Assembly: GCF_013167455.1 (NCBI RefSeq)
Contig: NZ_CP038328.1
Origin: Escherichia coli O157:H7
GTDB taxonomy: Bacteria; Pseudomonadota; Gammaproteobacteria; Enterobacterales; Enterobacteriaceae
Reading direction: 5' to 3' (one strand)
DNA: 64,000 nucleotides
The notes beneath the pieces were generated by a model. That model was not told the origin of the DNA. It did no database searches and saw nothing but the letters and a program-made list of their open reading frames with translations. Below are positions 25,199-30,324 of this stretch, in pieces; position 1 is the stretch's first letter; each line of letters begins with the position of its first letter. Made by a program: the position numbers and the translations under genes.

Positions 25199-26191
25199 AT
25201 GGTGAAATCGACGTCATGTACAACCATTGATTTCATGAATATGTCGCAGCTAACCGAACGGACCTTTACGTCATCTGAATCTCTCAGCAGCCTGTCACTT
25301 TTTCTTAGTCTGGCACGTGGACAGTGTCGGCCGGGTAAATTCTGGCATCGCCGTAGTTTTCGCCAGAAATTTTTGCTGCGCTCGTTGATTATGCCGCGTT
25401 TAAGCGTTGAGTGGATGAACGAACTTTCCCACTGGCCTAATCTCAATGTATTGTTAACGCGCCAGCCGCGACTGCCTGTGCGTCTGCATCGCCCTTACCT
25501 TGCGGCGAATCTTAGCCGTAAGCAATTGCTGGAGGCGTTACGTTACCATTATGCGTTACTCCGTGGATGTATGTCGGCGGAAGAATTCAGCTTATATTTG
25601 AATACCCCCGGGCTGCAACTGGCGAAGCTGGAAGGCAAAAACGGCGAGCAGTTCACGCTTGAGCTGACCATGATGATCTCAATGGATAAAGAAGGTGACA
25701 GCACAATCCTGTTCCGCAACAGCGAAGGTATTCCTCTGGCAGAAATCACGTTTACCCTGTGTGAATATCAGGGGAAAAGAACGATGTTTATTGGTGGACT
25801 GCAAGGCGCAAAATGGGAAATTCCACATCAGGAAATCCAGAATGCGACGAAAGCCTGCCACGGGCTATTTCCCAAACGCCTCGTGATGGAAGCGGCCTGT
25901 CTGTTTGCCCAACGTTTGCAGGTAGAGCAGATTATTGCCGTCAGCAATGAAACGCATATTTACCGCAGCCTGCGTTATCGCGATAAAGAAGGCAAGATCC
26001 ATGCCGATTACAACGCTTTCTGGGAATCGGTTGGCGGCGTATGTGATGCTGAACGCCATTACCGCCTTCCAGCACAGATAGCACGAAAAGAGATTGCCGA
26101 AATCGCCAGTAAAAAACGGGCTGAATACCGTCGGCGCTATGAGATGCTCGACGCTATTCAGCCACAAATGGCCACGATGTTTCGCGGTTAA
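25199..26191 (+). CDS. ybjX: VirK-like protein YbjX (DUF535)
   Basis: 330-aa ORF divergent from macA; length matches recalled YbjX; true start could be at a downstream Met. Confidence 0.8.
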   Translation: MVKSTSCTTIDFMNMSQLTERTFTSSESLSSLSLFLSLARGQCRPGKFWHRRSFRQKFLLRSLIMPRLSVEWMNELSHWPNLNVLLTRQPRLPVRLHRPYLAANLSRKQLLEALRYHYALLRGCMSAEEFSLYLNTPGLQLAKLEGKNGEQFTLELTMMISMDKEGDSTILFRNSEGIPLAEITFTLCEYQGKRTMFIGGLQGAKWEIPHQEIQNATKACHGLFPKRLVMEAACLFAQRLQVEQIIAVSNETHIYRSLRYRDKEGKIHADYNAFWESVGGVCDAERHYRLPAQIARKEIAEIASKKRAEYRRRYEMLDAIQPQMATMFRG

Positions 26192-27846
26192 TCCGCGCGA
26201 CCGCGCGCCAGCCACAGCACGCGTGAGAACATTTTTTTCAGCAGCGTCGGTACGGAGTCCACACCACGACGTCCGGCCTCCATTGCCACTTCAATGGCAA
26301 GATCGGGTTTGGAAGAGCGATGGATCGCTTTCGAGATAATTTTGCGCAGATTCATCGGGACATTTTCCGGGATTTGCGCCACGCGGTGGAACACATCGGA
26401 AAATCCCTGGCGATACATAAAATGTTCCATATCCAGCGCCGGTAACGCCGTTAAATGTTCTCGTTCGGCTTCCCGATCATTATTCAACAGGCTGCGTACC
26501 GTAGCGGCATATTTCTTCCCTGCTTCATCGCCATCGACCAGTACATGCCATTCAATCCCCATTCGGCGGGCAAATTTAACCAGTGGCTTTAGCCCGGACT
26601 GGGCAAACTCAATGACCTTGATCCCTTCGGCATCAAAATGATGTCCGCACTGACGCGCCAGTTCATTGATAACCCAGGTTTCCGTTTCCCCTTCCACCAG
26701 CAACCAGCAGCGAGCAAACAGCGATGACGGACGATTAAAACGAATGTGAAAAGAGATGCGGCGGCTGTCTTCGGTGCTCAAGCCACTTGGCCCCAGACGC
26801 CAGGCGGCAACACGAGAAGATTCACGCACCAGGCGGCAAACATGTTCCACTGGAGTTAACGAAAGCAGCTCGCCAGAGTTGGTGGTAGCAATACGTTGTA
26901 AAGGCAAAAGATTCAACAGATGCCAGGCAACTGAAAGCATAATGGGGTGTAAACGCGTTTCTGGATCTTCGATCAGCAACAATGGACGGGCGTCTTTATC
27001 CAGTCGCAATGTGCCTTTTGCCTGCAATAAAGTAGCAAACAGGCCGAGCAAAATAACCCGATACGAGCGCCCTCCAGGTCGGTCAATCATCCGGTTGATG
27101 ATGTCCAGATAGCGCCAGCTTCGTTGCTCATTGCTGGCCCGCCGCCGCATTAAACGATATCGCGCCTGTCCAGCCCCCTGCTCAGAGAAATAATGCTCAA
27201 GCAACTGCACCATTGCGGAAAGTCCCTGACGAATCTGTCCATCAGAGAGATTTTGCGGATGTGAGGACAACTCACGGGCGAGGAAATCGAGCTGGCGCGC
27301 GGTGACTTCCACATTGGGGACATTTGGCACCGTGCCGTTACGAATACGGCGCATAAAACGGGCATCACGCAAGCGCAGCACCGGCATTAAACGCACCAGA
27401 TGGTGTGCCTGATCGTTAATATCCTCAACATCAATCGGATGTCCGTCTTTATCGAGAAAACTGCGCAGTGTCATCACGCTGCCGTCTTCCGCACTCTCCC
27501 CTTCCAGACGATAAAAAATACGGTGATAGCCATCGGTGCATGGCGTCCAGCACGCTTCCAGCGGCCGATAACGGCGAACCCGATGTCGACCTGGCAGCGA
27601 TTCGCGGAAGGTCAAAATAATATGCAGATGATGTTCTCGCCCGTTGATATCTCCCGGCGGGAACCAGAAATCGTCGCGCTCAAAATGGTAGAGATCTGAT
27701 TCTGGCGATAGCAGCAGGGTTAAGGCGTCCAGCAAGCTGGATTTACCCCACGCGTTCTCCCCAATCAGGACGTTGTTTTGTTCCAGCATCAACGACAAAC
27801 GGTTGATACCGCGAAAACCCACAATTTCAACGCGCTCAAGAATCAT
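26188..27846 (-). CDS. ybjD: OLD-family (AAA ATPase + Toprim) protein YbjD
   Basis: 552-aa ORF; N-terminal Walker A GENAWGKSSLLDAL; C-terminal Toprim-like motifs LLVEGETE and VLVDGDEAG. Confidence 0.88.
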   Translation of the reverse strand: MILERVEIVGFRGINRLSLMLEQNNVLIGENAWGKSSLLDALTLLLSPESDLYHFERDDFWFPPGDINGREHHLHIILTFRESLPGRHRVRRYRPLEACWTPCTDGYHRIFYRLEGESAEDGSVMTLRSFLDKDGHPIDVEDINDQAHHLVRLMPVLRLRDARFMRRIRNGTVPNVPNVEVTARQLDFLARELSSHPQNLSDGQIRQGLSAMVQLLEHYFSEQGAGQARYRLMRRRASNEQRSWRYLDIINRMIDRPGGRSYRVILLGLFATLLQAKGTLRLDKDARPLLLIEDPETRLHPIMLSVAWHLLNLLPLQRIATTNSGELLSLTPVEHVCRLVRESSRVAAWRLGPSGLSTEDSRRISFHIRFNRPSSLFARCWLLVEGETETWVINELARQCGHHFDAEGIKVIEFAQSGLKPLVKFARRMGIEWHVLVDGDEAGKKYAATVRSLLNNDREAEREHLTALPALDMEHFMYRQGFSDVFHRVAQIPENVPMNLRKIISKAIHRSSKPDLAIEVAMEAGRRGVDSVPTLLKKMFSRVLWLARGRAD

Positions 27847-28271: not shown

Positions 28272-28967
28272 ATGTTCAGAAAATTAGCAGCTGAATGTTT
28301 TGGTACTTTCTGGCTTGTTTTTGGTGGCTGTGGTAGTGCTGTACTGGCCGCAGGCTTCCCGGAATTAGGCATTGGTTTTGCCGGCGTGGCGTTGGCGTTC
28401 GGTCTGACCGTTCTGACGATGGCCTTTGCTGTTGGTCATATTTCTGGTGGTCATTTTAACCCGGCGGTCACTATTGGTTTATGGGCTGGCGGACGTTTTC
28501 CGGCAAAAGAAGTCGTTGGCTACGTAATTGCCCAGGTTGTCGGCGGTATTGTTGCGGCAGCGCTGCTGTATTTAATTGCCAGTGGTAAAACGGGTTTTGA
28601 CGCGGCAGCCAGCGGTTTTGCTTCTAACGGTTATGGCGAGCATTCACCAGGCGGTTATTCCATGCTTTCCGCGCTGGTAGTTGAACTGGTATTGAGTGCG
28701 GGCTTCCTGTTAGTGATCCACGGTGCAACCGACAAATTCGCTCCGGCAGGTTTTGCGCCGATCGCTATTGGTCTGGCCTTAACCCTGATTCACTTAATCA
28801 GTATTCCGGTGACTAACACTTCTGTTAACCCGGCGCGCAGCACCGCGGTTGCCATCTTCCAGGGCGGCTGGGCATTAGAACAACTGTGGTTCTTCTGGGT
28901 GGTGCCAATTGTCGGTGGCATTATCGGTGGTCTGATTTACCGGACTCTGCTGGAAAAGCGTAATTAA
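28272..28967 (+). CDS. aqpZ: Aquaporin Z
   Basis: 231-aa product [21 protein letters not shown]...; two NPA motifs (HFNPAV and VNPARS). Confidence 0.95.
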
Positions 28968-29424
28968 TTAGCATTGGCATTTTATCTGCCCTGGTTGTTT
29001 TATCTTCGACATTACAAACCGCACGGGTATTGGTGGCGTCAAAATCGCTGAAGCGTTCCCCGAAGGCCGGGGCAGCCCACATGGATGTGGGCTGAGGGCG
29101 CGTCTTACAGGACGTTACCTCGCGCCCGACCCGGTTGCCGAAGGGGATAAGCTGAAGGTACCGCGCAGCGGCGATTTTGTTCGCCAGAGCCCGGGGGTGC
29201 AGGGGGCGGCGGCGACTGGCCGCCCCCTGCGCGCTCCCTGCGCCAGTGGCTTTATATGGCATTGCACATGAAAGGAGCGCAACAATGCTAAACACTCATA
29301 TAGAATTAAAAATCCCCCTCTGATGCATAACATTTCCTTTTAATTGCAACTTTACTCGTCCTTCCGCTTTCAGTAGTGTGTCATCGCGCATTTCGACTTC
29401 TTTCTTTGCAAGGGCTGGTTTTTC

Positions 29425-30324
29425 ATGTTTTCTGGGTTGTTAATCATTCTGGTTCCCCTGATTGTGGGTTACCTCATTCCGCTTCGCCAACAAGCTGCGT
29501 TAAAAGTTATTAATCAGCTATTAAGCAGGATGGTTTACCTTATTCTCTTTTTTATGGGTATCAGTCTGGCGTTTCTCGATAACCTCGCCAGTAACCTGTT
29601 GGCGATTCTGCATTATTCTGCCGTCAGTATTACCGTTATTTTACTGTGTAATATTGCCGCCCTTATGTGGCTGGAGCGCGGTCTGCCGTGGCGCAACCAC
29701 CATCAGCAAGAAAAACTCCCGTCGCGTATTGCGATGGCGCTTGAGTCGCTAAAACTGTGCGGCGTAGTAGTGATTGGTTTTGCCATTGGCCTGAGTGGAC
29801 TGGCTTTCTTACAACACGCGACCGAAGCCAGTGAATACACGTTAATTCTGCTACTTTTCCTCGTCGGTATTCAGTTGCGCAATAATGGCATGACCTTAAA
29901 GCAGATTGTCCTTAATCGCCGGGGAATGATTGTCGCCGTGGTGGTGGTTGCCAGTTCATTAATTGGTGGTTTAATTAACGCCTTTATTCTTGATCTACCC
30001 ATCAATACCGCGCTGGCAATGGCCTCTGGTTTCGGCTGGTATTCTCTTTCCGGTATTTTATTGACCGAATCTTTTGGTCCGGTAATCGGGAGCGCGGCGT
30101 TTTTTAATGATCTGGCCCGTGAGCTGATTGCAATTATGTTGATCCCTGGGCTGATTCGCCGCAGCCGCTCTACCGCACTGGGCTTATGCGGTGCGACGTC
30201 GATGGATTTCACCCTGCCCGTTCTTCAACGTACTGGCGGGCTGGATATGGTCCCGGCAGCAATTGTTCACGGTTTTATTCTTAGCCTGTTAGTGCCGATC
30301 CTCATCGCCTTTTTCTCCGCGTAA
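29425..30324 (+). CDS. lysO: Lysine exporter LysO (YbjE)
   Basis: 299-aa polytopic membrane ORF at the conserved position between aqpZ and hcp. Confidence 0.88.
   Translation: MFSGLLIILVPLIVGYLIPLRQQAALKVINQLLSRMVYLILFFMGISLAFLDNLASNLLAILHYSAVSITVILLCNIAALMWLERGLPWRNHHQQEKLPSRIAMALESLKLCGVVVIGFAIGLSGLAFLQHATEASEYTLILLLFLVGIQLRNNGMTLKQIVLNRRGMIVAVVVVASSLIGGLINAFILDLPINTALAMASGFGWYSLSGILLTESFGPVIGSAAFFNDLARELIAIMLIPGLIRRSRSTALGLCGATSMDFTLPVLQRTGGLDMVPAAIVHGFILSLLVPILIAFFSA

Follow-up and report, generated by a model that had tools for sequence, protein, structure and literature searches.

The closest described system is the TRIP1 repeat, first named by Rudd in 1999 and surveyed across 6725 genomes by Li et al. 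in 2024 (PMC10888264), who place 99% of the E. coli copies in five fixed loci. The loci given in that survey are the aqpZ-ybjE (lysO) spacer (TRIP1a), the regions after putP (TRIP1b) and after yohI (dusC) (TRIP1c), and further the alx-sstT (TRIP1d) and copA-ybaP (TRIP1e) intervals. A GC content of 62% to 65% and a very stable predicted "double-Y" fold are reported as characteristic. TRIP1a was found in reverse orientation in 1255 and in forward orientation in 3448 of 4703 genomes and TRIP1c in both directions, the reverse form being counted without relating orientation to replication.

The same repeat, by its authors' own statement, has been studied as the "replication risk sequence" RRS (Pham et al. 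2023, 2024; PMC10287960, PMC11194060), which is also treated in a 2026 preprint by Kusi-Appauh et al. The RRS papers describe a pair of GC-rich repeats, 222 bp in length, one near lysO and the other near dusC and both ~650 kb from dif, and these two main copies flank the terminus region of K-12 (PMC10287960, PMC11194060). Its G-rich strand carries the G4 motif GGGGGTGCAGGGGGCGGCGG (PMC11194060) and blocks Pol I, II, III and IV; with this strand as the lagging-strand template in K-12, a transient post-replication gap of up to ~2 kb is formed, which loads SSB and RecA and has an influence on supercoiling of the chromosome. Conditional essentiality is reported for at least one copy, and global supercoiling changes when both are deleted or inverted (PMC10287960, PMC11194060). 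With the K-12 sequences, either strand can fold on an exposed lagging-strand template: in vitro the G4 strand gives a block at nearly every replisome passage with gaps of ~650 nt, and the C strand (G4 strand on the leading template) a block at ~66% of passages with gaps of ~325 nt. When an inverted RRS was engineered in vivo, neither a RecA nor an SSB peak was detectable. The K-12 arrangement is called "native" in the accessible text of these papers (PMC10287960, PMC11194060), where natural inversions are not mentioned.

The DNA analyzed here, hereafter the window, is a 64,000-nt stretch of E. coli O157:H7. The gene order around the element is ybjD (26188-27846, minus strand), aqpZ (28272-28967, plus strand), lysO (29425-30324, plus strand) and hcp, and the aqpZ-lysO spacer (28968-29424) is 100% identical to that of O157:H7 PV15-279. 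A full TRIP1a/RRS-lysO copy occupies positions 29011-29285 of the plus strand, in the very spacer that defines TRIP1a; the K-12 copy of this spacer (MG1655-derived record) aligns to it over 276 bp on the opposite strand and is 90.6% identical. Identity to the TRIP1c/RRS-dusC and TRIP1b (putP) copies is 93% to 94%. On sequence grounds, membership in the TRIP1/RRS family is secure because the exact published G4 motif is present and because of the 90.6% identity to the K-12 copy; the element itself is therefore not novel, having been named since 1999 and given a proposed function in 2023. We consider it the best explanation, with a probability of roughly 0.85, that the spacer segment is the aqpZ-lysO copy of the TRIP1/RRS family (TRIP1a, RRS-lysO), an extragenic element of ~275 bp with several helices plus a G-rich tract, whose G-rich strand would fold when single-stranded.

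A sequence-only reading of the window had proposed a GC-rich, hairpin-dense segment between the two genes, which is borne out by GC fractions per 100-bp window of 0.58 to 0.75 across 29000-29299 vs 0.35 to 0.45 in both flanks, in agreement with the TRIP1 expectation, and by the folding energies given below; the unit is nevertheless somewhat larger than proposed, ~29011-29285. That reading had also set the segment apart from REP, rightly so given its ~275-bp unit and a median of three places per genome, and had offered a different repeat family as one possibility. The dispersed, non-REP repeat stands, but the family is one that already had a name and was not recognized as such. Its further suggestion of a relic of a degraded element finds no support, as no part of the copy is missing and every helix is preserved and shows covariation. 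It had also proposed a comparison with the K-12 spacer: the same element does occur there, though in inverted form and with no more than 90.6% identity, and further copies exist elsewhere in the genome. As to the structured RNA it had thought of, an Rfam 15 scan at E <= 10 gave no meaningful match, the hits being at chance level and the best within the element an archaeal sRNA (15.9 bits, E = 6.1).

The block that differs from K-12 spans 28972-29322 and comprises the conserved repeat (~29011-29285) between two allele-specific AT-rich flanks, at 28972-29010 on the left and 29286-29322 on the right of the plus strand, as defined by comparison of the K-12 and window spacers; sequence shared with K-12 starts again at 29323 (ATGCATAACATTTCC). 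A core of ~220 bp common to Escherichia and Klebsiella lies at 29026-29245 of the plus strand, where the Klebsiella copies align (query positions 22-241, 82% to 87% identity), and probably corresponds to the published 222-bp RRS. The consensus structure is composed of two multi-branch parts. A multi-branch domain with helices H2 to H9 (29022-29196, plus strand; RNAalifold consensus and pair counts) is closed by a long-range helix between 29022-29047 and 29172-29196, which includes CAAAATCGC/GCGATTTTG, and contains the hairpin CAGCCCACA-TGGA-TGTGGGCTG (29073-29094, plus strand) with a stem of 9 to 10 bp, the GCCCACA/TGTGGGC palindrome of the sequence-only reading. The G4-forming motif follows at 29193-29212, with one exact match on the plus strand, none on the minus strand and a G4Hunter-type score of 1.80; it overlaps a perfect 12-bp GC hairpin, GCAGGGGGCGGC-GGCGACTG-GCCGCCCCCTGC, at 29199-29230 of the plus strand, in which 29199-29210 pairs with 29219-29230. 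The 9-bp GC stem noticed earlier (GGGGGCGGC/GCCGCCCCC, 29202-29210 and 29219-29227) is part of this longer stem. At the 3′ end, helix 11 (GCGCTCCC/AGGAGCGC; 29231-29280, plus strand, from the consensus structure and pair counts) is formed around a variable loop, and a Shine-Dalgarno-like AGGAG is paired in it (29273-29280 with 29231-29238).

The minimum free energy of the plus strand from 29020 to 29290 is −144.1 kcal/mol, close to the ensemble free energy of −143.99 given for TRIP1a (PMC10888264), vs −119.7 ± 5.8 for 200 dinucleotide shuffles (z = −4.2), none of which folded as well. The complementary strand over the same interval gives −129.5 kcal/mol (z = −4.5). For covariation we aligned 20 copies, 10 from Escherichia (seven E. 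coli, one divergent copy labelled E. coli, one E. albertii and one E. whittamii) and 10 of Klebsiella type. Their consensus structure has 78 pairs in 11 helices with 98.8% of cells paired, and 17 pairs show two-sided changes that preserve pairing vs 8.9 ± 1.5 after column shuffling and 0 to 4 when partners are slid by one to three columns. Compensation is seen in the closing helix (GGCG/CGCC in Escherichia vs GGCC/GGCC in Klebsiella) and in the hairpin at 29073-29094 (GCCCACA/TGTGGGC vs GCCCGCA/TGCGGGC), where the A-T to G-C change is shared by the 10 Klebsiella-type copies and the Escherichia copy Ec_64A, the latter also having a C-G to G-C change. In the 12-bp hairpin four of the 12 pairs carry compensatory changes, for example GGGGGCGGC/GCCGCCCCC to GGGGGAGGA/TCCTCCCCC at dusC and GAGGG/CCCTC in K. 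aerogenes-type copies, and helix 11, with eight pairs and 97.5% pairing, has one (C-G to U-A, in six copies).

G·T wobbles outnumber A·C mismatches (47 cells in 11 pairs vs 8 cells in six pairs), which puts the selected fold on the G-rich strand, where it is better preserved than on the complementary one. Together, the covariation and the G·T excess fit a folded G-rich single-stranded DNA or an RNA of that polarity. The G4Hunter-type score is 1.76 to 2.8 in most copies and ~1.0 in three K. aerogenes-type copies (GGGAGTACAGAGGG...), which keep the hairpin through the matching CCCTC change. Coming from few and related sequences, this is a hint that constraint on the hairpin and multi-helix fold is no weaker than that on the G-quadruplex potential, and the three low-scoring Klebsiella copies indicate that the G4 may not be the selected feature.

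All but one of 5426 complete E. coli genomes contain the element, at 1 to 10 places per genome (median 3), so that the dispersed copies sought by the sequence-only reading do exist. The window itself, over its 64 kb, holds no second copy. Other E. coli copies lie at yohP-dusC and efeU-putP, the TRIP1c and TRIP1b loci. Copies with 82% to 87% identity occur in Klebsiella pneumoniae, K. aerogenes and K. variicola, with one more match in a Citrobacter record. One K. pneumoniae chromosome (CP125156.1) has the element at 13 places, and judged from this record Klebsiella is richer in the family than E. coli; the same record has a tandem pair 437 bp apart (L007, 2501-2715 and 2938-3152), downstream of a mechanosensitive-channel gene. 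A phage collection gave no match to the element, and there is therefore no sign of a phage origin. Matches listed from a plasmid collection are largely chromosome-sized or mis-labelled, several with chromosomal genes, and give no evidence of plasmid carriage; the PLSDB "plasmid" records CP125156.1, NZ_OL790696.1, NZ_CP141089.1 and NZ_CP134663.1 are 4.8 to 5.4 Mb long and evidently chromosomes.

A contig scan with the pattern TCAAAATCGC-N(112-132)-GCGATTTTG, whose halves are reverse complements and whose gap range spans 21 nt, returned mostly chance matches, ~11 of 120 loci being real among the matches listed; these are from E. albertii, E. whittamii, E. coli and Klebsiella. A 2.9-kb contig labelled as a Sporobacter termitidis metagenome-assembled genome (JAJUHI010000243.1) carries a Klebsiella-type copy with 84% identity (L083, 2300-2514) and is most likely a mis-binned enterobacterial contig in a Clostridia-labelled bin. 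Several copies are internally deleted. The lysO allele of strain KC-Dl-1 has lost ~137 bp between GTTC..CCGGGG direct repeats 124 bp apart, which lie at 29055-29072 and 29179-29196 in the window, and the endpoints of a deleted putP copy (L006) seem to be near the same repeats. Strains 131 and 06-00048 have a deletion of ~75 to 80 bp in a lysO allele of K-12 orientation. In each of these deletion alleles the GC hairpin and the G-rich tract are retained, and the multi-branch domain is partly or wholly gone.

The window copy departs from its K-12 counterpart in orientation, being flipped with respect to the two neighbouring genes: the plus strand of the window, which is the sense strand of both aqpZ and lysO, carries the G-rich "RRS-G4" sequence. 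Allele counts were obtained with locus-specific queries over the 5426 complete E. coli genomes, "neither" meaning no type at >=80% coverage. At aqpZ-lysO the window (O157) type is found in 895 genomes (16.5%), the K-12 type in 4028 (74.2%) and neither in 503, and at yohP-dusC the corresponding numbers are 1999 (36.8%), 3309 (61.0%) and 118. These counts agree in trend with those of Li et al. (PMC10888264). It follows by arithmetic from the locus totals that a K-12-type lysO allele and an O157-type dusC allele occur together in at least 601 genomes. In all four inverted-lysO genomes sampled (PV15-279, E69, 14EC033 and O8:H28 BMH-17-0027) the dusC copy is inverted as well. The K-12 orientation at lysO is shared by E. 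albertii, E. whittamii and a divergent Escherichia (L053); at dusC, E. whittamii is of the O157 orientation.

The GC skew of the window plus strand is −0.032 and that of the strand bearing the G-rich sequence over 50 kb around dusC in PV15-279 is −0.026; from these values and the synteny to K-12, the G-rich strand is placed as the leading-strand template at both lysO and dusC in O157:H7. In PV15-279 the G-rich sequence occupies the minus strand at 1.023 Mb (lysO) and the plus strand at 3.013 Mb (dusC), so that the two copies, one on each replichore, are inverted repeats of one another, as in the described RRS pair. The window copy does not have the "native" orientation, with the G4 strand as lagging-strand template, which is a property of the K-12 allele and not of the TRIP1 family, both orientations being included by Li et al. 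(PMC10888264). In the same PV15-279 chromosome, a gentisate/3-hydroxybenzoate cluster (mhbT, gtdA, maiA and others) that K-12 does not have adjoins RRS-dusC, between dusC and yohJ (L133, 24318-30328). The literature search found no paper that ties the TRIP1 orientation counts to the RRS replication model. The natural inversion is thus visible in published counts, and its undiscussed bearing on the RRS model is the sole part of our analysis with some novelty.

The conserved cores of the K-12 and O157 alleles align in reverse with ~90% identity. A simple in-place inversion between K-12 and O157 was rejected, since reverse complementarity to the K-12 flanks is not clear for the AT-rich flanks within 28972-29322; the candidates are an inversion with later divergence and an independent acquisition. 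Copies within one genome are closer to each other (93% to 94%, for the window copy vs the dusC type and for K-12 lysO vs K-12 dusC) than copies of the two allele types (88.6% to 90.6%), and because same-genome copies are closer than same-locus copies of the other allele, exchange between copies or replacement of both is suggested. A non-autonomous, MITE-like mobile element, or its remnant scar, that had entered sites downstream of genes in separate events and in either direction would account for the varying copy number (1 to 10 per E. coli genome, 13 places in the K. pneumoniae chromosome), the tandem pair in Klebsiella, the two orientations with different immediate flanks at the same two loci, and the ~10% divergence of the orientation alleles against 95% to 96% identity of the surrounding DNA. 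A perfect 9-bp inverted repeat, TTAGCATTG/CAATGCTAA, also brackets the window copy. However, this repeat is seen only in the present allele lineage (window and KC-Dl-1) and not in the flanks at the dusC locus, and chance alone would yield ~0.3 of them; neither terminal inverted repeats shared by the family nor target-site duplications were found, the two ends of the element do not form an inverted repeat, the copy flanks are unrelated, and no associated transposase was found. The five fixed loci (PMC10888264) hold 99% of the E. coli copies, no empty aqpZ-lysO site was detected among 60 sampled genomes with an artificial flank-to-flank query, the shorter spacers from which are internal-deletion alleles, and the phage collection is without a match. 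Mobility of this kind is therefore regarded as quite improbable. The arms of the 9-bp repeat, at 28968-28976 directly after the aqpZ stop and at 29283-29291 at the 3′ edge of the core, with 306 nt between them, might be the breakpoint scar of an inversion or a coincidence. A protein product of any overlapping open reading frame, whether the 124-aa and 72-aa frames of the minus strand or the 48-aa frame of the plus strand, can practically be dismissed. Such frames do exist, and one Klebsiella record annotates an "Uncharacterised protein" across a copy, but a Pfam search of all three gave no match, no annotated CDS lies under the element in the E. coli RefSeq records among the matches listed, and the substitutions across the frames track base pairing in the stems and not codons, that is, they are compensatory rather than synonymous. 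The protein-coding reading was rejected on the missing Pfam matches and on 1-bp indels between copies that break the frames, and neither the 124-aa (28921-29295) nor the 72-aa (29115-29333) minus-strand frame is a gene, both having already been taken for GC-driven artefacts from the sequence.

The other reading to be weighed is that the element acts mainly as a structured RNA, either as an aqpZ 3′ UTR or as a lysO leader, which stabilizes or ends the aqpZ transcript or masks the AGGAG in the 3′ helix. In the window, 43 nt separate the aqpZ stop from the sense-oriented copy, and a search for terminator-like sites found no intrinsic terminator between the aqpZ stop and lysO, thus neither before nor after the element, whereas the K-12 allele has a classic intrinsic terminator hairpin right after aqpZ (AGGCCTGGCGTAATGTCAGGCCTTTTTTT; K-12 spacer, L001, 2851-3344). 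Since the window allele has no such hairpin, aqpZ and lysO might be co-transcribed in this lineage. The covariation with its G·U excess on the G-rich strand is in line with an RNA, as is the dusC locus, where either orientation puts the G-rich strand in sense to one of two convergent genes; Li et al. likewise predict a "double-Y" RNA fold and suggest transcription (PMC10888264). On the other hand, orientation relative to the neighbouring genes varies, with K-12 TRIP1a antisense to aqpZ and lysO and the putP copy antisense to putP, no Rfam family was matched even at the permissive cutoff, and no promoter-like site was found in or next to the element. The reported experimental phenotypes are moreover at the DNA level, and folded single-stranded DNA also tolerates G·T wobbles. 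A mainly RNA-based role thus appears unlikely, although it is compatible with the DNA reading and the two are not mutually exclusive. At the end of the element, an AAAGGAG is followed after 7 nt by the ATG of a 12-codon open reading frame (MLNTHIELKIPL, 29285-29323; region 29270-29323). Other copies have ATG(ATG) at the same distance with different peptides (eg, MMNQHITTS in K-12), and owing to these differences between copies the frame is probably not a conserved small protein.

Returning to the assignment as RRS-lysO, the window element would be an intact RRS that offers its weaker, C-rich strand to lagging-strand synthesis. By analogy with the K-12 experiments, it would go on obstructing replication, but the gaps left in the lagging strand would be less frequent and shorter, and attenuated gap formation would be expected at lysO and likewise at dusC in this lineage. 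With no terminator between them, transcription of aqpZ probably runs on into the element, which would then form the 3′ end of that mRNA. The gap-forming function may even be largely absent in the inverted orientation, since the engineered inverted RRS gave no RecA or SSB peak, though the element is intact and conserved. Non-K-12 orientations in 16.5% (lysO) and 36.8% (dusC) of genomes sit uneasily with a strictly lagging-strand-dependent function. A tentative alternative, which we hold to be possible but doubtful, is that selection keeps the folded G-rich strand itself, as single-stranded DNA in either replication context or as RNA, and not the lagging-strand G-quadruplex block; it is based on the natural inversion of RRS copies (both of them in the four inverted-lysO genomes sampled, one of the two in at least 601 further genomes), the covariation on the G-rich strand, and the low-G4 Klebsiella copies that keep the hairpin. 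If this were true, the K-12-based "topological relief valve" model would need revision.

In the window, nature thus provides the inverted RRS arrangement for which Pham et al. relied on engineering; their engineered form abolished the single-stranded DNA gap signal and changed supercoiling genome-wide. O157:H7 and about one-sixth of sequenced E. coli have the inverted lysO allele, and because natural inverted strains exist, the orientation dependence of RRS function is testable in nature, with the covariation data pointing to which strand's fold is selected.

Among known systems, a further G4 is that of pilE in Neisseria gonorrhoeae, the sole other example cited by the RRS authors. It is alike in that a G-rich structure is said to trigger a replication-associated gap, but it is a single short motif tied to pilin antigenic variation, with no sequence relationship to the window element and no multi-helix domain. 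REP/BIME elements share with the window element a GC-rich, extragenic and self-pairing nature, a place just downstream of genes in either orientation, and proposed roles in DNA topology. They differ in having units of ~35 to 40 bp, hundreds of copies and a consensus of their own, against ~275 bp, 1 to 10 copies and a complex multi-helix fold here. TRIP1c (RRS-dusC) and TRIP1b (putP) are paralogous copies with 93% to 95% identity and the same structure, located at other loci; TRIP1c likewise occurs in two orientations, and TRIP1b of K-12 has a 125-bp internal deletion, seemingly at the same short direct repeats as the lysO deletion of KC-Dl-1. The nearest relative is TRIP1a/RRS-lysO of K-12, which has the same locus, G4 motif, predicted helices and GC content as the window copy, and from which the latter is distinguished by its flipped orientation, its different AT-rich flanks and a spacer without the aqpZ terminator hairpin.
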